This document shows, one piece after another, positions 1,952 to 60,857 of a DNA stretch of 64,000 nucleotides. This DNA is from a virus (taxonomy: Duplodnaviria; Heunggongvirae; Uroviricota; Caudoviricetes). The first letter of the stretch is position 1, and each line of letters begins with the position of its first letter. The notes below the pieces were generated by a model. That model did no database searches, had not been told where the DNA came from, and saw only the letters and a program-made list of their open reading frames with translations. Made by a program: the position numbers and the translations under genes. The DNA lies in the IMG/VR virus record IMGVR_UViG_3300031143_000003, positions 83,287-147,286 of that record. One strand, written 5' to 3'.

Positions 1952-2527
1952 TTACCCAGTTATATTAGTCAGTTTTAATTTTTCGTTTTCAATGTATACA
2001 TCAAATTCAGCTAGCAATTCGTCGTCGGATTTTCCACCTGACCAATCTTCAATGTCTCCAGCTTCTGATATTTGCGTCTTTGATCCACGTGTTTCTAGCC
2101 AGTCTTTAAATTCTGCCCTAGACTTGTGTAGCCATCCTTCAAAATTTCTATTTATTTGACTGTTTTGCCATGCATCATATGTGCCATTTGATCGCATTTC
2201 CATTTCAGCATCAGTTTGACAGTGCAGACAATGTTTAAATCGCTTATACATGTATTTGTGCTGATCAGCTAGCATTCTACTGTCGCATTTTGGACAATGT
2301 AATGGTATCTTTGCCATTGCTCTAGCCTTATCCAATTTTGTAACGGTCTGTTTTATTCCGTTTTTGATTGTCCAAGTTTTACCATTGTTTTCCCAAACGT
2401 CACCTTCAATGTGTTTAGCCATTGATTCTTTGGTGTAGCCTGATCTAATTTGAGTTTTGTTAGTGTAGTCGCCTGTCACTAAATTTCTCATTCGTTGTAC
2501 TTTGCTTTTTGATATATGCTTCTTCAT
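1952..2527 (-). CDS. Zinc-ribbon protein (CxxC...CxxC), function unknown
   Basis: The track ORF is 1952..2581. Starting at the internal Met (MKKHISKS, position 2527) avoids overlap with the upstream 759-aa gene. Contains CPKCDS...CLHCQ. Confidence 0.5.
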   Translation of the reverse strand: MKKHISKSKVQRMRNLVTGDYTNKTQIRSGYTKESMAKHIEGDVWENNGKTWTIKNGIKQTVTKLDKARAMAKIPLHCPKCDSRMLADQHKYMYKRFKHCLHCQTDAEMEMRSNGTYDAWQNSQINRNFEGWLHKSRAEFKDWLETRGSKTQISEAGDIEDWSGGKSDDELLAEFDVYIENEKLKLTNITG

Positions 2528-2534
2528 TGTAACT

Positions 2535-4814
2535 CTATTTATTATATTTAAACAATCCCAATATTTGATTGATCGGAGCAAATGCGCCTGTTAATTTATA
2601 TGTGTTGTTTTTATATACGAAGACTATTCCTTCGTTTGAAACTATTTTATCCATACCACCAAGTGATTGTAGTCGTTCTAATTCTAATTTTAACTTGGCT
2701 ATTTGTACATCATCGCCTTTTTTCATAATATCAGCTATTGCTGATTTTAATTCCTTTTGCATATCTCTTGCTGCCGAACGAGGATCTACGGCTAATACCG
2801 ATTGCATATTGTATAATACCTCGGCACCCAATCCTAAGAATATCTCTTCGAATTTTCTATTGTTGTTCTTAGCTATTTTTTTATGATCTTTTTTATCAAT
2901 CTGTTTAGCCCAAGCAATTAACTTTTCATCTACCAATGTTTTCTTGTCTAGTCTAAACGATTTTTCACCAAAGGCCCATCGTTTAGTCAATCCCATTAAT
3001 TTGTCTTTGTCAAGTGTTTCGGGTGCATTTTCATTAATAAATTTTGTCCACCAACGCTGATGATATTCTGCTAAACCGTCGCTATCTTTGAGACCAAATT
3101 CTGATTGTAGTTTAGTTATCATGCCATAGTATTTAGATTGCGAAACTTTGAAACTCTTTGATTGAGGTAACACGGTGATAGGTGGTCCCTTTATTGTATA
3201 TTTATCTTGCACATGTCCGTTTATATCTTCTATCATTTTAGCTAGTTTACCAGCAGCAGGTTGATTGCCTGATGTAGGATTACCTGACATGTCATATGTG
3301 GTTGTATTGTGGAATATAAGTAAAGCTTGACCATACGGAATAACATTTGTACTTCCTGGCCATATTACTTCTAGGTTCATGAATGTTTCACCATCAGCAA
3401 AGATTGATATTCTTTGTTTTTTCGATAACTTGCCTAATGCCGTTTCTAGATCCTTCATTGCAAAATTAAAACCATCGGATAATTCTCCTCTACCTGCCAT
3501 CCAAGATTTAACTCCAGATAAATTCATTGCATTTTCACCCTTATCTTTTAAGTGTCCTTTATTTCTAGCTGCAATGAGTCCTCCTTTTTCTTTCCAAGAT
3601 ATAGCTAATGCTTGTCCATCTGTCTTTTCACGTGTTAATTTGAGCTGACCTTTAAGTGCGTCTTTTACAATTTTTTTGAGATCTGAAAATGTTAGATTCA
3701 TCTTTATATCGAATGGATGATTCATATGACCCCAAGCTCCGCCTTCTAATAGTAGCCCTTCGGTTAAAGCTTCTCCTGGTTTCTGCTTCTTCATTGGTTC
3801 TTGCTTGGAAGATGATATAGATGCGTCTGCATCCATAAAGCTTAAGAATTCGTATCCAGCAACGGTCGCTATATGCTTAGACCATTTTGTCCATCTGGTA
3901 TATGCAACTCTTCCTTTTTTATCTTTAAGTAGATTTGTTCCACCATATTCGCCTGGTACACCTATTGGAAAATAAGATACAGCTCCTGTTGGTCCTCCTG
4001 AGAAATCCTTTTTGAATTCTGTATCATGTTGAAAGAATTCGTCTTCTCCACTTATATAATTAAGTACTTCCCAACCTAAATCTCTTGCGGATTTTTTGCC
4101 GAATTTCTTCCAAGATTTCTGATTTCCCCAATATCCCCTAGGTCCATCGTCAACAGAATCTCCCATGTGGGTTGCGTTTTCCTTAAGTAAATCTGGAATG
4201 CTAAAATGGGTGCAGAATCTTTCGACTAAATCCTTTGCGTCGATTAACTTAGATGTTATTAAATCATATGCAGCTTGGTCAAATTTTCCATATATTTTTT
4301 TAAAATTTTTCTTACGTTTAATTGGATCTAGATCTGATAACATGTTTCTAACATCTGTTCCACTTAATGTAGATAATCTAGGTAATCCATAAACATATCC
4401 AGCATCAACATGTCCCTGCGTCATGTCTGCATTGTAGGGTGAGTAATACTTACCACCTAGTCTTCCTGCGTCTTTTTGTCCTACTGCTGTAATGTACCGT
4501 GTATCTTTGTTGAACTTAGATAATATCTCCTTTGGATTGTATGGATTTTTAACTTCTACAATTCTAGTGGAATTTATACCGAACATTTTAGATATTATAC
4601 TTTGCTTTTCTTTAAAGTTCATTGGAGATTTTGGCATTTGAACTTTGTTAGATGTACATATATAAACGTTATTCTTTCCAAATTTGTCTACTAAATGTTT
4701 GTAGTTCTTATAATGCCCAGAATGAAACGGTTGGAATCTGCCTGCATATACTACAACAAGCTCATCTTTACTTTCATTGATAAACGATTCAGCTATCCAA
4801 TTACCTAATTTCAT
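2535..4814 (-). CDS. Multidomain nucleotidyltransferase: N-terminal NMN adenylyltransferase-family domain fused to a large C-terminal region with ligase-like (KxDG / DGE) motifs
   Basis: 759 aa. N-terminus carries VVVYAGRFQPFHSGH (the GRFQPFHxGH motif of archaeal/NadR/NadM-type NMNAT) plus an ISST-like motif LSGTDVR. Further along: REKTDGQALAISW (KxDG-like), FADGETFMNLEV (hhDGEhh-like), NEGIVFVYK...YKLTG. Start overlaps the stop of the upstream kinase gene (ATGA). Confidence 0.55.
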   Translation of the reverse strand: MKLGNWIAESFINESKDELVVVYAGRFQPFHSGHYKNYKHLVDKFGKNNVYICTSNKVQMPKSPMNFKEKQSIISKMFGINSTRIVEVKNPYNPKEILSKFNKDTRYITAVGQKDAGRLGGKYYSPYNADMTQGHVDAGYVYGLPRLSTLSGTDVRNMLSDLDPIKRKKNFKKIYGKFDQAAYDLITSKLIDAKDLVERFCTHFSIPDLLKENATHMGDSVDDGPRGYWGNQKSWKKFGKKSARDLGWEVLNYISGEDEFFQHDTEFKKDFSGGPTGAVSYFPIGVPGEYGGTNLLKDKKGRVAYTRWTKWSKHIATVAGYEFLSFMDADASISSSKQEPMKKQKPGEALTEGLLLEGGAWGHMNHPFDIKMNLTFSDLKKIVKDALKGQLKLTREKTDGQALAISWKEKGGLIAARNKGHLKDKGENAMNLSGVKSWMAGRGELSDGFNFAMKDLETALGKLSKKQRISIFADGETFMNLEVIWPGSTNVIPYGQALLIFHNTTTYDMSGNPTSGNQPAAGKLAKMIEDINGHVQDKYTIKGPPITVLPQSKSFKVSQSKYYGMITKLQSEFGLKDSDGLAEYHQRWWTKFINENAPETLDKDKLMGLTKRWAFGEKSFRLDKKTLVDEKLIAWAKQIDKKDHKKIAKNNNRKFEEIFLGLGAEVLYNMQSVLAVDPRSAARDMQKELKSAIADIMKKGDDVQIAKLKLELERLQSLGGMDKIVSNEGIVFVYKNNTYKLTGAFAPINQILGLFKYNK

Positions 4815-5515
4815 TTTGTGTTCCTTAATTCTAGTTCAGCGTCTATCCAACTCTGTGCTATTTTATTTTGTATTGGGCGACGAACAAATTTAGACGCTGT
4901 TTGCTTGATTGATTTTGAGAAGTCAGCTTTAACTGAATTGTCTATGCTAATGAAGTTTTTGTCACCAAATAATGTTTTATATTTTTTTAGATTTGCTTGG
5001 CATTCTTTCCATGATCTGTTTACCAATTCTACTGGTACCCGTCTTGGTCTAGATTCGTTTCTAGATAATGCAACTTCTAGTGTGGTATTTATGAATGTCA
5101 TATAACAGTCGTAGCCTTGCTTTTTCAACATTTTTACCTGGGCAGCGATCTTATTGTAGTCTTTACCTGTACCGTCTATCAATAAGCCAAGTTTGCCATT
5201 CAAATAATGCTTGAGTCTAGAACTAGTTATTGATTTTGCTGATTTGCGTATTTGTTGGGATTTGGCATATTCTTTAGCACTTAATTTTGTCATATCAAGG
5301 TCAATATTATGTTTTGCCATGATTAGCTCAAATGCTGAGTCTGAATTTACTCCCTTTAGTCCGTCGCTTGATACGGTTGGAGTTGATTCCGGCATACCGA
5401 ATAATGAATTTGCTGCGAAGGATTTGCCTGAGCCTGGACCACCTGACATAAAAACTGCCTTAAATATTCCTGGATCATATGTGCCTTCATTCAATAAATC
5501 TATCATCTTTATCAT
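4811..5515 (-). CDS. P-loop kinase of the polynucleotide kinase (Pnk) family, kinase domain only
   Basis: 234 aa. Walker A GGPGSGKS. The C-terminal block GLLIDGTGKD...ALSRNESRPRRVPVELVNRSWK aligns with T4 Pnk GVIISDTNLN...[23 protein letters not shown]. No phosphatase domain in this ORF. Confidence 0.6.
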   Translation of the reverse strand: MIKMIDLLNEGTYDPGIFKAVFMSGGPGSGKSFAANSLFGMPESTPTVSSDGLKGVNSDSAFELIMAKHNIDLDMTKLSAKEYAKSQQIRKSAKSITSSRLKHYLNGKLGLLIDGTGKDYNKIAAQVKMLKKQGYDCYMTFINTTLEVALSRNESRPRRVPVELVNRSWKECQANLKKYKTLFGDKNFISIDNSVKADFSKSIKQTASKFVRRPIQNKIAQSWIDAELELRNTK

Positions 5516-5562
5516 ATAATATAAATATCAATGTAATAGTTTAATGTATCAGCTATGTGAAC

Positions 5563-8397: not shown

Positions 8398-11300
8398 TTA
8401 GAATGTTCCACCATCTATTGTGCCATCCATGTCAGTCAAGCTACCAATGTAACTAGTTGCCGTTATTGTTCCACTTGCGCTTACGTTACCAGACGCTGTT
8501 ATATGTGTATCTACCTTTAAATTGCCGTATACTCTAGTCTCCATACTTTCACTGACGGAGAATAGTCGATTACCGTAACCAACTGCGCCACTATTACTTT
8601 CAATCACAAACTTAGCTGCGGGCTTTTGATCATCTGCATCCAATAATATTGCGAAACTTCCAGACCCCTTCTGCGTTATTGACCCCATTACTTCGTCTGG
8701 ATCAGATAGTACTGCTGATTCTGCCCTAAGTATAGTTGATCTACTACCAGCTGTAGCATTAACAGCTACGAATCCCTGAGTCTGAGTTCCTATTTGTACA
8801 GATGAGGCTGCGCCAAATGCACCCATGTTGACTTCTTTTACTCTAATTTTTTTGTAATCACTACCTGATATAAATTGTACGTCGCCACTTGTATTATCAA
8901 TACCCATTCTAGCATGCTCTACTGCATCGGATCCTGAATCATCGGCTGATGCACTATAGAATATAATTGAACCAGTTGAAACGTGAATGTGTCTAAATGG
9001 GAATCGCTTGCTACCCAATGAATGGTATTCTGGTCTATCCGGAATCACATCTCCACCAACTATTGTTGCTCCATTCCTAACGTATAATGAATAATGAGCT
9101 TCACCGGGTCCCTTGAAGAACGTCTCAAGCTTACCATCATTATACGTTTGCTTTTCAGATCCAGATATACCAATTATTGCAGGTCCAGACTTCAAATTAC
9201 CCTCTATTGCATGGTTATCAGTTGTTGCATTTCCGAACGAAGTGTTACCAGTTGATGTTATGGTTGCAAAAGTTGCATTTGTGTTGGTTGTTGCCTTTGT
9301 ATTGATATTTGTTTGCAATATTGAGCTAGATGCATTTAATTGTGCGTTAGTGGAATAGGCTGTTAAGTCTTGATCTCCACTATTATGCCCTATTATATTG
9401 GATGCGCTGATATGTCCGCTTGCACTAACCGTTGTTACATTTGTTATTGCATTACTTGCCATATCTAAAGTCTGCGTTGCAGTATGGTCGCCTAGATCAT
9501 CTGCTCCAGCGATAGCCGTTGAAAGAGAAGCCGAAACATCAGCAAATCCACCTAAAGAGAATGTGCTAGTTACTTCTAAGCTACCAGTTATAACTGCATC
9601 TCCAGTATATGGAAAACCTGCGCCTGATCCTCCAGTGATTCCCTGATATGCAGATGCGCTTAGTGTACCTGCTATTTCGAAGTCGCCTATCAATTTTAGT
9701 GGTGATGTTATTGTTTGTATTGCACCAGCAGAACTCAAAGAGAATTTATCCGGATCTATATAATTGTACGTTAGAGGGTAGTATGTTACCAATCCCCTAG
9801 AGGCGTTACGATCTTCCTTCACATATGTACCAGCGAACTGTTTTTTCGGATAATAGACATCGTAAGTAGCATTATTTGATTGTGAAGGGTAGTTTTGGAA
9901 CCAGACAGTATCTCCTGATGATGATACTACATATTTTACGCCATATACACTGTGTGATGCATAAGTTGTATTTATATGGCTGCCGGACGGCTCACGATTA
10001 TCCAAGTCAAGATAGCCAGCTAAATTGATAAAGCCCGATGATGATGGGGACGTTATGGAACCGGATATTAGACTTACTGTGCCAGAATTTGTATGTACAG
10101 GATCGTCATAATAGTCCTTCAGATATGTTGGTGTCATTAAATCATACATATCTAACATAGGCCAATTATGAGCCTGTTTCTGTGATGCGACAGAATCTGC
10201 ATATTGTATAAATGGGATATCAGAGGAATAGACAAAATCTGTAAATCCACTATTATCATGCATCATAGCTTTTAGTGTTTCAATAGTAGTGGTATGGTTA
10301 GGATCATTGGCAAACTTACCTTGATGGTGACTCCCAGCTTGCCATAGATCATTCTGTATGACCATTTCTCCAAACTTCAAGATTGATCGGTTCGTTGGAT
10401 TCAGTTGACCTAATTCGCCATTTACCAACACAGTATCTTTACCATATGGCAGTCCACTAGCTGTAACATCGTTTAAACAGATAGATGCCTTGGAGTTCAT
10501 ACTTTTATCATATACGAAGAATGGGATATCTCCAAAACCAGGGGACTGTGTGTTATCAAATCCGACGTCTACCGTTGTACCGAATCCCAGTGCTCCCATG
10601 TATGACGATTTCATACCAAATATACTCCAAGAATTGAGGAAGAGGACGCCATCCGAATTATGGCAATTTTCCGGATAGTATAGGTTTTGTGTTTGAGTTG
10701 AGCCTCCGGTAAAATGGTCACTGACGAATGTATGTGCGGGAATTTCCTGTAGATTTGATCCAGTGGAAGATCCGTAATACTTTATGGAATGATCTGCGTA
10801 TGGATAACCTGCATATACCTGTTCTACTTGCAATCTATAATCTGAATCTATAGGGTATACTGATGCAGATACGTGTTGATAGCATTTGCTCGTATTTATT
10901 AATTGTCGTAAACCATCTGCTATTTCAAACTTGGTTTTATTAGTTATATCAAACTCTATACGGGAATTTGTGTCTCCAGCATACCACGCTCGTTGGACTT
11001 TTGTATTTTGTTGATCAGGCAGAATTTGATTTACAGCACGAACGTTGAACGGGATATTACCATTGGCTCCATCAGTATATTGTAGATTTAGATAATTGGA
11101 AGATGTTTCAGTTGCATGGTAATCCCATTTATCGGCTATGGAATGTTCGAAATAGTGATGTCCAGTCAGATCAGATGATTCAAAATTTGATGATGTAAAG
11201 CCAATACTAAATCCAAAACCCAGTGGCATATGGATAACGGGTATTAATAGTTGGTTGTCGGCGCCATCTGTATATGGTGCACCATTTGCGTCTGAGTCAT

Positions 11301-12183
11301 TGTTTATTAATATGGATGATGAATTTCTGAAGTCGTGTCTTGCAAAATCATGATTATAATATGCTCTTTTGTATGGGGATAAACTACCGACGCCAATTGC
11401 AGCTGTTTGGGCCCCAATAGTAATTACACTAGAATCTGCGTCGAATGATAGATTTGTTTCGGTAGTCGAATCAATAGCAGTAATTCCTCCGCCACCTGAT
11501 GAAGCTGCGCCAGTTGCTCCTATATATCTATATCCAACTATCCACAGCGGCTTGGCATAGCCACTCATATCTGGTCCATCTCCATTACTCTGGTCGCCAC
11601 AATACATTATTCCCTGATAGTAATCGAACGCTGCTCCTCCGAAATTCTTACCAGTCTGCGTTCTACCACCGTATGGTATAGCATTCGAACTAGGTCCATT
11701 TGTCGATGTATCGTTTTCATATACAACCGCAGCATATCCTGGTCCAAACTTAGTTGGATTTAACCAATTCTTGAACCGGCTATCGGAATATTCAGCAACT
11801 TCGCCGGCTTGAACATCACCAGTATTAGCCTGGCTAGCTGATATGAATGCAACATATGTTTGGCCATTGCCGTCCATATCAGTTAGTGGCATAGTTATTT
11901 TTTCAAAATTTGGATCAGTACCTATACCAGTTGCCGATACAAATGCACCATCGTCCCATATTTCAGCAGTTGTTGCAAATGTTCCATCCCAAGTGCGACT
12001 TGTTGCAAATTCTGGCGCTACTGATGCATATTCAATGTCGCCAACGTCAGATAATAGTTCAGCTGAGTATATCTGGTGACTAGCTTCTAAGTCTTCACCT
12101 GATATTGGTCCTGGTCCAGTGTGTAGCTTTCCAAAAGCATGTTTAAATGACGCTTTACGTTGGTCGGTTGTATTGAATGCCAT
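8398..12183 (-). CDS. Giant tail fibre/structural protein (1261 aa)
   Basis: Long single ORF with an SD (GGAG) upstream. C-terminal ...ITASGNVSASGTITATSYIGSLTDMDGTIDGGTF resembles the repeats of the 593-aa protein and the C-terminus of the 206-aa protein. Confidence 0.65.
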   Translation of the reverse strand: MAFNTTDQRKASFKHAFGKLHTGPGPISGEDLEASHQIYSAELLSDVGDIEYASVAPEFATSRTWDGTFATTAEIWDDGAFVSATGIGTDPNFEKITMPLTDMDGNGQTYVAFISASQANTGDVQAGEVAEYSDSRFKNWLNPTKFGPGYAAVVYENDTSTNGPSSNAIPYGGRTQTGKNFGGAAFDYYQGIMYCGDQSNGDGPDMSGYAKPLWIVGYRYIGATGAASSGGGGITAIDSTTETNLSFDADSSVITIGAQTAAIGVGSLSPYKRAYYNHDFARHDFRNSSSILINNDSDANGAPYTDGADNQLLIPVIHMPLGFGFSIGFTSSNFESSDLTGHHYFEHSIADKWDYHATETSSNYLNLQYTDGANGNIPFNVRAVNQILPDQQNTKVQRAWYAGDTNSRIEFDITNKTKFEIADGLRQLINTSKCYQHVSASVYPIDSDYRLQVEQVYAGYPYADHSIKYYGSSTGSNLQEIPAHTFVSDHFTGGSTQTQNLYYPENCHNSDGVLFLNSWSIFGMKSSYMGALGFGTTVDVGFDNTQSPGFGDIPFFVYDKSMNSKASICLNDVTASGLPYGKDTVLVNGELGQLNPTNRSILKFGEMVIQNDLWQAGSHHQGKFANDPNHTTTIETLKAMMHDNSGFTDFVYSSDIPFIQYADSVASQKQAHNWPMLDMYDLMTPTYLKDYYDDPVHTNSGTVSLISGSITSPSSSGFINLAGYLDLDNREPSGSHINTTYASHSVYGVKYVVSSSGDTVWFQNYPSQSNNATYDVYYPKKQFAGTYVKEDRNASRGLVTYYPLTYNYIDPDKFSLSSAGAIQTITSPLKLIGDFEIAGTLSASAYQGITGGSGAGFPYTGDAVITGSLEVTSTFSLGGFADVSASLSTAIAGADDLGDHTATQTLDMASNAITNVTTVSASGHISASNIIGHNSGDQDLTAYSTNAQLNASSSILQTNINTKATTNTNATFATITSTGNTSFGNATTDNHAIEGNLKSGPAIIGISGSEKQTYNDGKLETFFKGPGEAHYSLYVRNGATIVGGDVIPDRPEYHSLGSKRFPFRHIHVSTGSIIFYSASADDSGSDAVEHARMGIDNTSGDVQFISGSDYKKIRVKEVNMGAFGAASSVQIGTQTQGFVAVNATAGSRSTILRAESAVLSDPDEVMGSITQKGSGSFAILLDADDQKPAAKFVIESNSGAVGYGNRLFSVSESMETRVYGNLKVDTHITASGNVSASGTITATSYIGSLTDMDGTIDGGTF

Positions 12184-27178: not shown

Positions 27179-30100
27179 TTAATATTGTACTAGACTCGTT
27201 GAATCTGTTACGTCTATTTCAATTAAACTGTCAACCATATCCTTCATGATGTCAATATGTGACACAATCATTAGAAAGTCGAATTCAGTCTTGAGATAAC
27301 CAAATAATAATTCAAGTGAGCTGATGTTGGTTGAATCTAGGTTACCGAATCCTTCATCAATAATTAGGAAGTTCGGACGTGGTAAGTTAGATACCTTAAT
27401 CAATGCAACTCTAATTGCTAATGAGCTTATAAACTTTTCCATACCCGAAGTCATTTCAAGTGGCCACATATTGTCGTCGTATTTTATGTAGCTCAATATG
27501 TCCTTACCGTCAACGTCAAAACGTATCTCAAAATCAACTATTTGCGAAAGTGTATTGTTTACTTCCTCTTCAATGTATGGTAATGTTTCTGCAATAATTT
27601 CATATGGAATTCCATCGCGTCTAATTGCATCTAAATAATATTCGTATGACTTGAGTTTCAATTCTAATTCATGTGCATCACCAATTATTGTCTGAATTGA
27701 TTCAATTGTTTGTTTTGCCATGGATACACTACTGAATGCATTACGTAATACTATGTTTTGGGACGATATTCTACCCTTGATCGATGATCTATTTGATTCT
27801 AGGCTAGACAGTTCCAGGTTTATAGATATATTATGCTTTATTGCAGCTTCATTTTGGTAATATATAACAATACTTGCATCAACATCAGTTAAATTTCTAT
27901 TTGATTCAAGTAATGCATTTCTACGTCGTTCCAATTTTGTAACAACTTCTGACTCATATCGAATATATTTTGATTGGTCATTTGTTAGTGTGCTATACGC
28001 ACGAATATCATCCGATATTTTGGCTGCACCTTGTAGCAATTTGTCAGAGTCCGATTTAGCTGCCAATAACGATGCCACGACCAGTTTATCGTCTAATAAT
28101 TCAATTTTTGCATCTTCAGCTGATTTAACAAAGTCGTTGTTGCAACAGTATTCGCAGTTTGGATCATATTCATGCTTTGCTAACTTTGATATTGATGTTA
28201 ATTTATTTTGTACGTTTACCTTGATTATGCCAATCTTTTGCTGAATCTGTCTGTTATTTGACTGTTCAGTTTGCATTGTTGCATGTTGCGTGTTCAATTG
28301 AACTATGTCATATGATAACATCTCTGTTGCCAGTTCGTCCAACTTTAGTTTATTTGTTTCCATATACGCCGAATATTTTTCCAGCTTATCTGTATGATCA
28401 ACGATATCTGATGCGACATTGCTTCTAGTTAATTGCATAGCAGCCAAGTCTGTTGATACTGATACATGCTTTAGTTCCGCAGATTTATCCTTTATTGATA
28501 ATTCGGCAGCGTCTAAATCTTCAGTTAATTTAGCTTGTTGTGCAGATAACGTGTCGTATGCTATTACATGTTCATCCAACAAGTATTCTGCGTCAATTAA
28601 TTTTTGCGCATAATCTACATTCTTAAAATTTCGCAGTAATGTTTGTACAGACTTTATTTCGTCATTGGCTAATCTAAATAATTCCTCGAAAACAAATATG
28701 TCTAAAAACTTAGACAATAGATTTTTCTTTTCCGGTTGAGGTTTATCAATGAATCCAGTATTGTTATTTTGCATTGACATTGCTGTTAGTACAAAATCCT
28801 CATATATTCCCAAATATCCAGTTATGTTTCTATCTGTATATCTACGTTGTTCACCATTAAGTGATAGTTTTTCACCGGATTCATCGATCATCCAAAAGTC
28901 AACATCAACTCGAACCGATTTACCATCCTTGTTTCGTTTTCCCCTACGTTCAACAAAATAATCTACACCGTCTATTTCAAAGTTTAATTTGCTATTGAAT
29001 GTATCTAATCTATTATTCATTACATTTGCAGCAGAGAATGTTCTAGAGCATTTATTGAATAAGCAGAACATTAGCGCATCAAATATTGCAGATTTACCAG
29101 CATGGTTAGGGGCAAATATTCCAATCACATCGTTCGCCTTAGAAAAGTCAATTTTATTGTTTGGCCCATAGCTGAACATGTTGTCGAATTCAAACGTTTT
29201 GGGTTTCCAATTGATTCCCCTTGATACATCGGCGTCAAGTAATCGTTTATTCAATTCCCTGTTTATGTTCTTAATTCTACGCATTGTCTCATCATCTGGA
29301 TTATGATTTGTTCTAATATAATCATCCAACAATTGATTCTGATATGAAACGTCACGAATATCCCTAACAATCTTTCTAGTTTTCTTATTTTGTGCATCCA
29401 ATCTATCGTTTCTAATTATAACGATGTCAGTTGTTTTGCAGCTAGTTTTAATTGTTTTAGTTAATTCCTTTATTTGAGCTTGAGTTGTATTTGTTGTACG
29501 CAATCTAACCCGGGGATACTTTGGTATATCTGATATATTGGGAAGTACACCATCAGCTATATCAATAGTATAATATCCGTAATTATTTGTGAAGTCTACA
29601 AATTCGACAGTCCTAGATTTAACATCCCATATGCCACATCCATGGTTTTCAAATGCTTCACCAAAATTTTGTTGCAATGTTGAGCCAATCTGTAGTATCG
29701 TTTTTGCTTCGTCGTAAAATTGTCGCTTATGAATATCTCCCAACATTGACATGTCATATCCATCAAACATTGTTACGGGCAAATTGTCATTACTAACAAC
29801 ATATCCCTTATCAGTAGTCGACTTATCAACTGCACCATGAAATAATGCTATCTTTGTTTCGGCGTCAAATGAGTCCGATTTAATAAATGTAGCAGGATCA
29901 TCAAATATTCCAAATACTGTGAAGTGCACATTTGCTATATGATATACACCTGAATCCTTTAGGTAGTGCAAGTTTGGATGATTTAGCGCTGAAATTATTG
30001 GCGTTAATGAGTCCAACCTAGTTGAATTATTTAGATTTGCATCATGATTACCAGTTATAACAATAGTATGTCGTCTATCTGCTAAATTAGTAAAGAATTC

Positions 30101-30325
30101 AGACGTTAGTTCAATTAACTCTGGTGATATGTCAGTTTTACTATGTACAATATCTCCGCCTACATAGACAATAGCGTTTTTAGGAAGGCGATCGATCTCG
30201 TCATATAGTTGTTTGAATACAGCACGGTATTCCGCATGTCGCTGATAGTTTCGAATATGGATATCAGCCACGTGTAATATTTTGTCAATTTCATTAAATC
30301 CTACGTCTATTTTATTAAAATCCAA
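27179..30325 (-). CDS. Fused Mre11-Rad50 (SbcD-SbcC; T4 gp47+gp46 equivalent) recombination nuclease/ATPase
   Basis: 1048 aa. N-terminus has phosphoesterase motifs VADIH, GGDIVH, GNHD, GDIH (Mre11/SbcD). Then Walker A FAPNHAGKS, long coiled coils, zinc hook CEYC, signature SGME, Walker B LIIDEGF, H-loop IVSH (Rad50/SbcC). Confidence 0.85.
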   Translation of the reverse strand: MDFNKIDVGFNEIDKILHVADIHIRNYQRHAEYRAVFKQLYDEIDRLPKNAIVYVGGDIVHSKTDISPELIELTSEFFTNLADRRHTIVITGNHDANLNNSTRLDSLTPIISALNHPNLHYLKDSGVYHIANVHFTVFGIFDDPATFIKSDSFDAETKIALFHGAVDKSTTDKGYVVSNDNLPVTMFDGYDMSMLGDIHKRQFYDEAKTILQIGSTLQQNFGEAFENHGCGIWDVKSRTVEFVDFTNNYGYYTIDIADGVLPNISDIPKYPRVRLRTTNTTQAQIKELTKTIKTSCKTTDIVIIRNDRLDAQNKKTRKIVRDIRDVSYQNQLLDDYIRTNHNPDDETMRRIKNINRELNKRLLDADVSRGINWKPKTFEFDNMFSYGPNNKIDFSKANDVIGIFAPNHAGKSAIFDALMFCLFNKCSRTFSAANVMNNRLDTFNSKLNFEIDGVDYFVERRGKRNKDGKSVRVDVDFWMIDESGEKLSLNGEQRRYTDRNITGYLGIYEDFVLTAMSMQNNNTGFIDKPQPEKKNLLSKFLDIFVFEELFRLANDEIKSVQTLLRNFKNVDYAQKLIDAEYLLDEHVIAYDTLSAQQAKLTEDLDAAELSIKDKSAELKHVSVSTDLAAMQLTRSNVASDIVDHTDKLEKYSAYMETNKLKLDELATEMLSYDIVQLNTQHATMQTEQSNNRQIQQKIGIIKVNVQNKLTSISKLAKHEYDPNCEYCCNNDFVKSAEDAKIELLDDKLVVASLLAAKSDSDKLLQGAAKISDDIRAYSTLTNDQSKYIRYESEVVTKLERRRNALLESNRNLTDVDASIVIYYQNEAAIKHNISINLELSSLESNRSSIKGRISSQNIVLRNAFSSVSMAKQTIESIQTIIGDAHELELKLKSYEYYLDAIRRDGIPYEIIAETLPYIEEEVNNTLSQIVDFEIRFDVDGKDILSYIKYDDNMWPLEMTSGMEKFISSLAIRVALIKVSNLPRPNFLIIDEGFGNLDSTNISSLELLFGYLKTEFDFLMIVSHIDIMKDMVDSLIEIDVTDSTSLVQY

Positions 30326-31248: not shown

Positions 31249-31692
31249 TTATGAAAATTTTATGGTGCTTATTTTCTCGAATGTTTGTTCTGTTAATCTA
31301 ACTCTGGCGAAGCGCCTAGGGCCTATGCAATCATTGTAAAAATCTGATTTTGCTGAAACATGGAATCGGTGGTGGATGTTTTCCTCAAGATAGTTTACCT
31401 GTCCCTTTGTTTCACCAAGTATCAATATCTCAAATGTGAAGTTGGATTTACCGAGTTTAGCTATATCTGAATTCAGTAGCTTGGATGATCCAGTGTATTC
31501 TCGCCAATTTGAATCCTTTCTAATAACCTTTCTGCGAGTTTTGCCTGGTACCTTTATTCGTCGAGTTGTACCAAAGTATTTTCTACCGACGTATTTTTTT
31601 CCAGTTTGATTGTTTGTTATTAAGTAAACAAAACCAAACATGTCTTCTGGGGTTTCACTCAGAATTGACCCATTATATAACCAATGTGACAT
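31249..31692 (-). CDS. GIY-YIG family endonuclease (free-standing, Seg-like homing endonuclease candidate)
   Basis: 147 aa. GFVYLITN...GKKYVGRK (GIY...YIG-like) with downstream conserved R/E/N positions. Inserted between primase and a structural gene. Confidence 0.6.
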   Translation of the reverse strand: MSHWLYNGSILSETPEDMFGFVYLITNNQTGKKYVGRKYFGTTRRIKVPGKTRRKVIRKDSNWREYTGSSKLLNSDIAKLGKSNFTFEILILGETKGQVNYLEENIHHRFHVSAKSDFYNDCIGPRRFARVRLTEQTFEKISTIKFS

Positions 31693-50783: not shown

Positions 50784-51233
50784 TTAGTTGGTTGCTAATA
50801 TATTAACGTGATCTACAACTGATGTCCAGTCTGGGAATTGATCAGTGCCAAAGTGGATTAGTTTTCCACTAAAATCTCCAGCTCCATTCCAAGTGTGATC
50901 GTCGATTAGTATGTCTCCGATCAATAGATCTTTTCTATGTGTCAATATTAATTTTTTTCTAAATTGTGGAAAGTGATCTGCTACCCATAATCGCTTTTGC
51001 GTCCAAGCATTTGGGTTATCCCAAGGAGCCGTAGAAGCGATCAACAGGTCATGACCGGAATCAAGTAAAGCTTGAACAGCTAACTTAGCTCCGGGTATAG
51101 GTTGTAATATCGAAAAATCGAGGTCTAAATCTGGACAATGTCCATCCCCTGTAAAGTTTGGGTGAGCTGATGCGAGTAATGCAAAATCTGCCAATACACC
51201 ATCTAGGTCAATGAATATTCGTAATTTGGTCAT
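50784..51233 (-). CDS. HAD-superfamily 5'(3')-deoxyribonucleotidase-like protein
   Basis: 149 aa. IFIDLDGVLADF matches the DxDGVLADF motif of NT5C-type deoxyribonucleotidases. Confidence 0.65.
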   Translation of the reverse strand: MTKLRIFIDLDGVLADFALLASAHPNFTGDGHCPDLDLDFSILQPIPGAKLAVQALLDSGHDLLIASTAPWDNPNAWTQKRLWVADHFPQFRKKLILTHRKDLLIGDILIDDHTWNGAGDFSGKLIHFGTDQFPDWTSVVDHVNILATN

Positions 51234-53303: not shown

Positions 53304-53765
53304 TTAAAATGAACCAGGAGCGACTTGCATAACCGTTAATCCTCTATCTCTCCACATTTTCACGACCTTATCGCGATCATCGAATATACATAGTACATCA
53401 GATTGATTTGGAAATTTAGCGTCGAACCAATCTGATTTGAGCTTATCGTCGGGTGTGAATGAATTTAGTGGTCTCATTGTGATACTGTCAAATGGTACAT
53501 TGAATTTATCAAGCCATTTTGTTGTAGTGTCCTTTGTTCCAGTACATCGACCAGAAAATATCGCAATATTGAAACCTTGTGATTTGAGTGTTTGTGCCAT
53601 GATTATGACTGGATTATTGGGCTTATCCATTTGGATATTATTTGGATCAAAAAACTTAGTCCAATTAATCTTCCCATTGTCCTTTGTGCTAAAGGATCGT
53701 CGATCATCAATAAGTGCTAGGGTGCCATCTAGATCGAAAATTACCCATTTGTTTGAATTGCTCAT
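53304..53765 (-). CDS. Polynucleotide 3'-phosphatase, homologue of the T4 Pnk C-terminal HAD phosphatase domain (stand-alone)
   Basis: 153 aa. VIFDLDGTLA (DxDGT). IAIFSGRCTGTKDTTTKWL versus T4 VVVSGRESGTKEDPTKYY. C-terminus IFDDRDKVVKMWRDRGLTVMQVAPGSF versus T4 [27 protein letters not shown]. Confidence 0.85.
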   Translation of the reverse strand: MSNSNKWVIFDLDGTLALIDDRRSFSTKDNGKINWTKFFDPNNIQMDKPNNPVIIMAQTLKSQGFNIAIFSGRCTGTKDTTTKWLDKFNVPFDSITMRPLNSFTPDDKLKSDWFDAKFPNQSDVLCIFDDRDKVVKMWRDRGLTVMQVAPGSF

Positions 53766-53833
53766 AGTTGATATGTTTAATTGTTATAAGTAAATATAAG
53801 CAATTAAAATGACATAAAAAAATATTATATCAA

Positions 53834-54281: not shown

Positions 54282-54355
54282 GTGGACCCTACTGGACTCG
54301 AACCAGTGACCTTAACATTATGAGTGTTCTGCTCTAACCAACTGAGCTAAGGGTC
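54282..54355 (-). tRNA. tRNA with CAU anticodon (Met or Ile2/lysidine type)
   Basis: Minus strand GGACCCTTAGCTCAGTTGGTTAGAGCAGAACACTCATAATGTTAAGGTCACTGGTTCGAGTCCAGTAGGGTCCA. 7-bp acceptor, D-arm GCTC/GAGC with GG, anticodon loop CTCATAA, T-arm ACTGG-TTCGAGT-CCAGT. 74 nt, no encoded CCA. Confidence 0.8.
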
Positions 54356-54439
54356 CGGGTGATGGTTGTCTAACTTTAATTATGGGTGGAAAACCCAACT
54401 AAAGACCTTAGTTTGCTGGTACCATCAACAGCTATACTG

Positions 54440-55301: not shown

Positions 55302-55466
55302 CTACCTGTTGATTAATTTAATACCGGAATAAATTGTTAAAAGTACGACTAAGAATCCGGCGATATTCTTAGTTGTATTCGGTTCACTAATTAGGTCGAG
55401 CCCAATTGTTATCATAAATATTGCTACAAACAATGTTATGATTATTCCCATTATTTTTTCGATCAT
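55302..55466 (-). CDS. Small two-TM membrane peptide (54 aa), possible NfeD-like partner of the SPFH protein
   Basis: MIEKIMGIIITLFVAIFMITIGLDLISEPNTTKNIAGFLVVLLTIYSGIKLINR. Start overlaps the upstream gene's stop (ATGA) and it ends 5 nt before the SPFH start. Not in the ORF track (under 60 aa). Confidence 0.35.
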   Translation of the reverse strand: MIEKIMGIIITLFVAIFMITIGLDLISEPNTTKNIAGFLVVLLTIYSGIKLINR

Positions 55467-56143
55467 TTTGCGTATGTTAAAATGTTACCTTGGCCAGTAT
55501 TCTTGCCAAATCTTCCGTCTTTTACGCATGAACCGTTACTATAAAGTGTGTCGATTCCTGCAATCGTTTTTGTTCCAGCATTGATTATGCCTTCGCAATT
55601 GTGAATGTGTCCAAATAATACTAGTTTTGGACGAACAGTCAATAATCGTTTTGCTAAAGCCGAACATCCACAGTATTCTAATGCTCCGAATCTATCAGTT
55701 GATAGGTCCAATATGCCCTTAGGTGGTCCGTGCACAATAACAATGTTCGTGTTATCTGGAATTTCAGCCCAAAGTCGACTTAATTTTGATCGATTTTTCA
55801 TGAACGACCAGTCTCCGAATGTTGGAGAGAACGGTGATCCCCATATGTTAATACCATCGATCGTTACTGATTCATTTTCCAAATAGACGATACCATTTGC
55901 CTTGAATAGGTCCCTATCGACAAGTCCATATTCGATACTTGAGTCGTGATTTCCAGCAACGAATATCTTGTGCTTGATTTGTAGACTACTAAACCATGTT
56001 ATAAACGAACGAACCTCAGGCTCATTTGCATATTGATTTCTAGGGTTCGAACAGTCTCCTGAAAAGATCACCATGTCAATATCTGATGGTATATTCAAGT
56101 GACCATGATACGTGTGAGTATCGCTTATGTGCCAAATTCTCAT
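55463..56143 (-). CDS. Calcineurin-like metallophosphoesterase
   Basis: 226 aa. HISDTH, GD, GNHD, VHGPP, GHIH motifs. Confidence 0.7.
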   Translation of the reverse strand: MRIWHISDTHTYHGHLNIPSDIDMVIFSGDCSNPRNQYANEPEVRSFITWFSSLQIKHKIFVAGNHDSSIEYGLVDRDLFKANGIVYLENESVTIDGINIWGSPFSPTFGDWSFMKNRSKLSRLWAEIPDNTNIVIVHGPPKGILDLSTDRFGALEYCGCSALAKRLLTVRPKLVLFGHIHNCEGIINAGTKTIAGIDTLYSNGSCVKDGRFGKNTGQGNILTYAK

Positions 56144-60760: not shown

Positions 60761-60764
60761 GTTG

Positions 60765-60857
60765 TAAGGGAGGCAGGACTCGAACCTGCGCGATAAGGAT
60801 TTGTTAGCCTTATCTCTCTTATTTGCGTATAGCGTTTCCCAGTTTCGCCACTCCCTT
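60765..60857 (-). tRNA. tRNA-like element (93 nt) with canonical acceptor stem and T-arm but atypical internal arms; possible class-II tRNA or tRNA-like RNA
   Basis: Minus strand AAGGGAG...GCAGG-TTCGAGT-CCTGC-CTCCCTT-A. Perfect 7-bp acceptor and 5-bp T-stem with TTCGAGT loop. A 3-bp D-stem (GCG/CGC) with GG-containing loop, and a 7-bp hairpin GATAAGG-CTAACAAAT-CCTTATC. No standard 5-bp/7-nt anticodon arm could be placed. Confidence 0.4.

Follow-up and report, generated by a model that had tools for sequence, protein, structure and literature searches.

A stand-alone T4 Pnk-type HAD phosphatase of a marine T4-like phage as a predicted component of an unbundled RNA-repair pathway

The polynucleotide kinase/phosphatase of phage T4 (Pnk, also named PseT or Pnkp; structures 1ltq and 5uj0) combines an N-terminal P-loop 5'-kinase domain with a C-terminal HAD (DxDxT) phosphatase domain. 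Asp165 of the latter is the nucleophile and Asp167 the general acid/base, Ser211 and Lys258 contact the phosphate, and Asp278 is a ligand of Mg2+ (PMC3592404). A comparative survey of jumbo phages described this HAD family as "usually fused" to a kinase (PMC7824862). A kinase-phosphatase fusion is also seen in Pnkp1 of the bacterial Pnkp1-Rnl-Hen1 complex (4xrp; PMC4411300). In the present study a gene for such a phosphatase was examined in a stretch of 64,000 nucleotides of the Caudoviricetes record IMGVR_UViG_3300031143_000003. This whole 64-kb stretch, referred to as the window, corresponds in reverse complement to approximately positions 56-64055 of a contig of 147,338 bp from a marine metagenome. 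The gene (53304..53765, minus strand, ATG start) encodes 153 amino acids (aa) and is predicted, from Pfam and PDB matches, to specify a stand-alone polynucleotide 3'-phosphatase of the T4 Pnk type.

The family assignment is based on several profiles and structures. The Pfam family HAD_PNKP (PF25109, "Polynucleotide kinase PNKP phosphatase domain") was matched with an E-value of 9.9e-32 and 110.5 bits, above the curated cut-off of 27.6 bits, with nearly the whole profile (positions 2-143 of 143) aligned to residues 6-153. Among PDB sequences the C-terminal HAD domain of Pnkp1 matched best (4xrp residues 178-311, E 4.5e-15); the isolated phosphatase domain of T4 Pnk (5uj0, E 4.4e-12) and residues 160-301 of T4 Pnk (1ltq, E 6e-11) were also found. 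PHROG 415 covered most of the protein (E 6e-35), and PHROG 505, representing full-length Pnk, was matched at its C-terminal profile positions 159-295 only (E 4e-37). The T4 Pnk sequence used in the alignments was checked to be identical to 1ltq; identity of the window protein to it is about 36%. The original prediction, a match to the C-terminal HAD domain of T4 Pnk almost from end to end, is borne out by the full-length PF25109 match and the alignment to T4 residues 160-301. In the alignment to PseT the likeness extends past the generic DxD motif into the Pnk-specific C-terminal block common to both proteins (DDRxxVVxMWRxxG..QV..G.F), which reads DDRdKVVkMWRdrGltvmQVApGsF in the window protein and is present together with DLDGT and SGR.

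Every catalytic residue that was checked is retained. The residues of HAD motif I (D11-L-D13-G-T15; 53721..53735, minus strand as for all motifs given here) correspond to T4 Asp165 and Asp167 and are invariant in the alignments A4 and A6, from which all calls of invariance for the phosphatase were taken. The motif II region (S71-G72-R73; 53547..53555) is invariant except for S71, which is nearly so; S71 and R73 are the counterparts of Ser211 and Arg213. D106 and the motif III lysine K110 (53436..53450), both invariant, correspond to Asp254 and Lys258. Motif IV (D129-D130-R131; 53373..53381) is aligned with Asp277, Asp278 and Arg279, D130 and R131 being invariant and D129 nearly invariant. Furthermore, R22 and R98 were found invariant at the positions of Arg176 and Arg246. 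These two arginines, Arg213 and Asp254 are reportedly essential in T4 Pnk according to mutagenesis by the Shuman laboratory. As far as can be judged from the sequence, the active site of this 153-aa T4 Pnk-type HAD phosphatase is intact.

Two differences in length from T4 Pnk were found within the domain. The window protein is seven residues shorter after motif II, and sequence alignments revealed that motif I is followed by about 14 additional residues, a clade-specific insertion (TKDNGKINWTKFFDP; 53643..53687, minus strand). The insertion is found in stand-alone forms, with the consensus K-x-NGK-I-N-W-x-x-F-F-x-P in the stand-alone clade, and is missing in T4 Pnk, in Pnkp1 and in a fused Pnk of a Streptomyces phage. 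It is also present in a phosphatase-kinase fusion of Caulobacter phages (Bertelyvirus), a 352-aa protein annotated '3'-phosphate, 5'-polynucleotide kinase'. The N-terminal phosphatase of this fusion is about 40% identical to the window protein. In contrast to the latter it carries a C-terminal P-loop kinase, so that the order of the domains, phosphatase then kinase, is the reverse of that in T4.

As the phosphatase domain occupies residues 6-153 of 153, the protein indeed lacks the N-terminal kinase domain, as had been stated before; no P-loop 5'-kinase domain of bifunctional Pnkp (T4 PseT type) was detected in the 153-aa polypeptide. Its N-terminus agrees with the N-termini of homologues in the alignment. 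Upstream of the gene lie a spacer of 68 bp and a gene for an unrelated 132-aa signal-peptide protein without family match. The stand-alone, split form had further been called unusual. This view could not be maintained, since single-domain lengths were observed for all analysed IMG/VR relatives (148-193 aa in 80 of 80) and for the best metagenomic homologues (149-187 aa at 61-88% identity for the 120 best of 2,285), as well as in cultured phages. Examples of the latter are CPT_Maja_053 of Burkholderia phage Maja (159 aa), annotated "PseT-like polynucleotide kinase phosphatase", and WID41979 of Pseudomonas phage ZQG1 (151 aa). Like PHROG 415, they share the single domain and the insertion after motif I with the window protein, at 39-41% identity, but they belong to other phage groups and hosts, and their gene neighbourhoods bear no relation to that in the window. 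To our knowledge, none of the stand-alone viral Pnk-type phosphatases, these two included, has been characterised biochemically. The stand-alone form is less discussed, yet abundant, and a separate small gene is the normal form of the phosphatase in its marine-phage clade.

The neighbourhood of the phosphatase was surveyed by clustering all open reading frames (ORFs) within 10 kb of 80 IMG/VR phosphatase genes, which form 45 clusters at 90% identity. A Pnk-like mini-kinase of about 130 aa (AAA_33) was detected in 26 of the 80 loci (16 of the 45 clusters). In 16 loci it lies not more than 400 bp from the phosphatase, typically 4 bp downstream. Nine loci (6 clusters) additionally contain an RNA ligase of the Rnl1 family (PF09511, E 5e-20), which was always accompanied by the mini-kinase. 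The three genes are consecutive in several cases, in the order ligase-phosphatase-kinase (L048/L050 and L074), ligase-kinase-phosphatase (L017) or kinase-phosphatase-ligase (L063). The profile of the mini-kinase aligns with the whole kinase domain of T4 Pnk, residues 1-140 (hhalign 96.4%, E 1.3e-9). Mini-kinases are present in 623 cultured phage records. In the records examined the gene often overlaps the Rnl1 gene and was once annotated as "putative polynucleotide kinase".

The phosphatase of the window is 53-63% identical to those of L017, L048, L074, L063 and L055 and resembles them in length and insert; for L017 about 61-63% was obtained. On the strength of this similarity it is considered orthologous to the phosphatases of the marine cassettes, among them IMGVR_UViG_3300042887_003321 (L048) and 3300022922_000019 (L017). 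In contrast to these, neither partner gene is found with it within 64 kb. A possible arrangement is provided by the nearest large relative, IMGVR_UViG_3300031705_000001 (149,989 bp). Its phosphatase, 64% identical, is encoded at approximately 20.8 kb, whereas Rnl1 and the mini-kinase are located at approximately 140.3-143.6 kb, about 120 kb away. Therefore, dispersal of the three genes occurs, and the group does contain a dispersed "split Pnk", but its kinase is another one than that discussed below. As a side observation, L055, which contains Rnl1, two types of kinase and UvdE, encodes a 476-aa DUF2828/DUF7788 protein directly downstream of the phosphatase (10648-12078 of that locus). This protein may be an accessory protein of RNA repair.

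By homology, the window protein would act as an acyl-phosphatase dependent on Mg2+, as a free-standing member of the T4 Pnk C-terminal-domain family. Asp11 is expected to attack the terminal phosphate with formation of an aspartyl-phosphate intermediate, with Asp13 as general acid/base. Ser71 and Lys110 would grip the phosphate, and the metal would be held by Asp130. Thereby 3'-phosphate ends of broken nucleic acid, and probably also 2',3'-cyclic phosphate ends, would be converted to 3'-OH ends. In the large marine-phage clade the pathway appears to be unbundled, with phosphatase, mini-kinase and Rnl1-type RNA ligase as separate genes. The likeliest task of the phosphatase would be the healing of the 3' ends of nuclease-cut tRNA or other RNA, which would enable resealing by the ligase.

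With moderate confidence we regard the phosphatase as the 3'-end-healing enzyme of such an unbundled T4-like RNA-repair pathway. This role is suggested because of the linkage to mini-kinase and Rnl1 in relatives and because of the phosphatase-kinase fusion in Caulobacter phages. The guilt-by-association evidence for a 3'-healing component is good. Among the activities considered, healing of polymer 3' ends is best supported, since the linkage to kinase and RNA ligase is tight and the Pnk-specific arginines are kept. The presence of tRNA genes in the phage, one of which precedes the phosphatase at a distance of 517 bp, was also counted in favour of RNA repair. For this genome we infer both the type of ends, RNA and not DNA, and the partner genes. 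The phosphatase stands alone in a block of small genes, and its partners would be encoded in the remaining 83 kb or so of the genome, or be missing.

Several observations weigh against this interpretation. No homologues of the mini-kinase or of Rnl1 were found in the window by jackhmmer and tblastn, and no Pfam match to an RNA ligase or RtcB was recorded among its called genes. Within 10 kb both partners are also missing from those IMG/VR relatives that are closest (62-66% identity; L011-L015 and others). The insertion adjoins the active-site flap and could alter the choice of substrate. Genes of DNA and nucleotide metabolism are also frequent in the neighbourhood. An ATP-dependent DNA ligase (PF01068) was detected in 27 of the 80 loci at a distance of 0.5-8 kb. 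Of 82 loci searched, 12 have an NT5C deoxyribonucleotidase gene not more than 10 kb away (8888-9361 in L009/L010), and dCMP deaminase and UvdE recur near the phosphatase.

These neighbours were considered with regard to other functions. Cleaning of 3'-phosphate ends of DNA is the role of the stand-alone yeast enzyme Tpp1 and of the PNKP phosphatase domain, and T4 Pnk acts on DNA 3'-phosphates as well. The phosphatase might accordingly be a DNA 3'-phosphatase, which prepares nicks for the DNA ligase or polymerase of the phage. The DNA ligase gene in the relatives fits this function, in particular in L021 and L023, where it is adjacent with a gap of 457 bp. The same applies to UvdE downstream in L009 and L010 and to a Pyr_excise gene (T4 endonuclease V-like), which is located about 9 kb upstream in the contig of the window. 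However, the tightest and most often repeated linkage is that to mini-kinase and Rnl1 RNA ligase, not to DNA ligase. The distances to the DNA ligase are mostly 3-8 kb, as expected from the general synteny of related phages, and the window itself showed no DNA ligase. A function as DNA 3'-phosphatase is regarded as unlikely.

A role in salvage was considered, too. The enzyme could dephosphorylate 3'-NMP, 3'-dNMP or a related small molecule together with the NT5C-type deoxyribonucleotidase, which is encoded in the window as well (50784-51233, minus strand; a 5'(3')-deoxyribonucleotidase and second HAD phosphatase). This would agree with the NT5C genes near the phosphatase in relatives and with the recurrence of dCMP deaminase and a guanylate-kinase-like gene in the neighbourhood. 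A narrower active site might also result from the insertion, which lies next to the HAD flap. But the insert comprises only about 14 residues, and the protein is essentially capless like T4 Pnk. R22, R73 and R98, specific for Pnk, are invariant, and fusion or adjacency to polynucleotide-kinase-like proteins and RNA ligase favours polymer ends as substrates. We consider a small-molecule substrate quite improbable.

A further question concerns the kinase gene at 4811..5515 (minus strand), 48 kb from the phosphatase. The original prediction had taken it for the detached kinase half of a Pnk split in two genes, working as 5'-kinase with the phosphatase. Its product is a 234-aa P-loop kinase of AAA_33/Zeta type, and some of its features agree with this proposal. 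The family profile aligns with the whole kinase domain of T4 Pnk (hhalign 91.4%, E 9e-7), and K31, S32, D59 and R156 are the counterparts of T4 Lys15, Ser16, Asp35 and Arg126. The best Foldseek match of its AlphaFold model is the polynucleotide kinase of Clostridium thermocellum (4gp6, E 2.6e-5). In two of the 80 phosphatase loci, L055 and L065, a homologue of this kinase is encoded about 5 kb downstream of the phosphatase. On the other hand, a counterpart of T4 Arg38 is absent from the hhalign alignment, and the best PDB sequence match is PSTK, not Pnk. The fold matches are non-discriminating, as the model has a pLDDT of 70 and adenylate kinases, PSTK, AvrRxo1 and zeta toxin score close behind 4gp6. 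With the mini-kinase the 234-aa family has the P-loop alone in common. The two loci mentioned are the only ones of the 80 with this kinase type near the phosphatase, and L055 has the mini-kinase as well. Homology alone neither establishes nor excludes a polynucleotide kinase at 4811-5515; the gene context is more informative.

The context was examined in 80 IMG/VR loci with homologues of the 234-aa kinase, including flanks of 10 kb. In 53 loci an NMNAT-like nucleotidyltransferase was found, either as part of the kinase ORF or encoded after it in equal orientation, mostly at a distance of not more than about 2 kb; in 11 of the 80 loci kinase and nucleotidyltransferase form one fused ORF of 910-1508 aa. 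In contrast, HAD_PNKP, Rnl1 ligase and mini-kinase were found within 10 kb in none of the 80 loci. In the window the stop codon of the kinase overlaps the start of the following ORF (ATGA), indicating translational coupling. This ORF (2535..4814, minus strand) encodes a 759-aa protein with an N-terminal NMNAT-like nucleotidyltransferase domain containing the HIGH motif. Kinase and 759-aa protein were both judged to be outside the phosphatase feature. Because of these fusion and adjacency statistics the kinase is assigned to the nucleotidyltransferase, of which it is thus the dedicated partner. The pairing is frequent, not universal; in L092 the gene downstream of the kinase homologue is unrelated to the 759-aa protein. 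The kinase is probably not the other half of the phosphatase and belongs to a different gene module. That the two genes 48 kb apart represent a split Pnk is therefore considered very unlikely.

As a mere analogy, the combination of kinase and NMNAT-like domain recalls the NadR-type NAD salvage enzymes, which are mentioned in the jumbo-phage survey (PMC7824862). In the 759-aa protein the nucleotidyltransferase domain is followed by a middle region of low confidence and a C-terminal domain with invariant ligase-like motifs (KTDG 397-400, E482, EGxVFxxK 728-735 and KLTG 740-743). Only the N-terminal domain was recognised by fold searches. Both the 234-aa kinase family and the 759-aa family comprise thousands of marine homologues each (relatives L095-L174). 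A 209-aa ORF without family match (1952-2581, minus strand) has homologues after the kinase/nucleotidyltransferase module in 22 of the 80 loci and may be a third component of it.

The least credible of the alternatives, for which the ligase-like motifs KTDG, NLEVIW, EGIVFVYK and KLTG of the 759-aa protein were noted, is that mini-kinase and Rnl1 were lost and the phosphatase works with the coupled pair 5515-2535 in a new three-part heal-and-seal pathway, a proposal to which we attach hardly any probability. If true, this pathway would be centred on an uncharacterised, very abundant protein family of marine phages.

The positions of the two genes in the genome were compared with regard to expression. 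The phosphatase is part of a block of small genes, and the kinase at 4811-5515 lies between tail-fibre genes and the terminase, that is, in a different module. In a promoter scan of the window sigma-70-like sites were below the shuffled expectation, and the terminator scan yielded none. The sequence TGATATAAT upstream of the phosphatase corresponds to an extended -10 consensus, but the pattern was counted 11 times versus 10.5 expected. For the T4 late-promoter motif TATAAATA 18 occurrences were counted versus 13 expected, which is not above chance. Its matches on the plus, non-coding strand at 5520, 8381, 20923, 27161, 43538, 44834 and 49384, which read TATTTATA in coding orientation, precede several gene starts, among them that of the kinase at 5515. 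Independent timing of expression, which the original prediction had taken to be implied by the distance between the two genes, is not backed by these promoter-like motifs, as all of them are at the frequency expected by chance.

The phage is a T4-like myovirus, as genes for Gp23, Portal_T4 and a gp21-type protease are located just outside the window, together with those for the large terminase and ribosomal protein S21; the analysis covered 7.4 kb on this side. All genes of the window are on the minus strand. Megablast of 8 kb around the phosphatase against cultured phages gave no match. Besides the phosphatase and the NT5C-type nucleotidase, the block of small genes includes a Band_7 lipoprotein, the tRNA-Met(CAT) mentioned above (54282-54356, minus strand) and a 226-aa calcineurin-like metallophosphoesterase (55463-56143, minus strand), which is encoded 1.7 kb upstream of the phosphatase. 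Among solved structures, MPPED2 (E 2.5e-23) and Rv0805, both of the cyclic-nucleotide phosphodiesterase type, are nearest to this esterase; it might act on cyclic nucleotides or 2',3'-cyclic phosphates. Its identification with the phosphoesterase of the Rnl1 cassettes of Pseudomonas phages was rejected, as the similarity is not significant. Pnkp1 works in a complex with Rnl and Hen1, neither of which was found in the window.

Further features were noted in the window and its relatives. A second tRNA, a 94-nucleotide tRNA-Leu(CAA), is encoded at 60764-60857 (minus strand). A 1048-aa protein with Metallophos and SMC_N/AAA_23 domains (27179-30325, minus strand) is apparently a single-polypeptide fusion of the SbcCD or gp46/47-like type, and a SegE-type GIY-YIG homing endonuclease (31249-31692, minus strand) is encoded among the structural genes. 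Genes for ribosomal protein S21 and DnaJ are common in this marine T4-like group (31 of the 80 phosphatase loci); examples are L175 20050-20385, on the same contig beyond the window, and L009 5721-5912. No Shine-Dalgarno-like sequence was seen before the start codon of the phosphatase (53766-53833) or at other gene starts. The G+C content of the window is about 36% (0.32-0.40 in blocks of 4 kb), and relatives encode Por_Secre_tail (T9SS) domains (L092). Taken together, these three features hint at a host from the Bacteroidota.

Taken by itself, the phosphatase gene is unremarkable and belongs to a family that has been annotated in many phage genomes before. Of most use are the corrected assignment of its partner and the recognition of the unbundled set of Rnl1, phosphatase and mini-kinase. 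With regard to annotation, phosphatases of this kind are routinely mislabelled "3'-phosphatase, 5'-polynucleotide kinase", and a distant P-loop kinase should not be matched to such a phosphatase by domain logic alone. In marine T4-like phages the heal-and-seal pathway of T4 takes the form of three small separate genes, which in some cases follow one another directly and in others are spread over more than 100 kb. The occurrence of this unbundled pathway suggests that defences of the anticodon-nuclease type press on marine phages.

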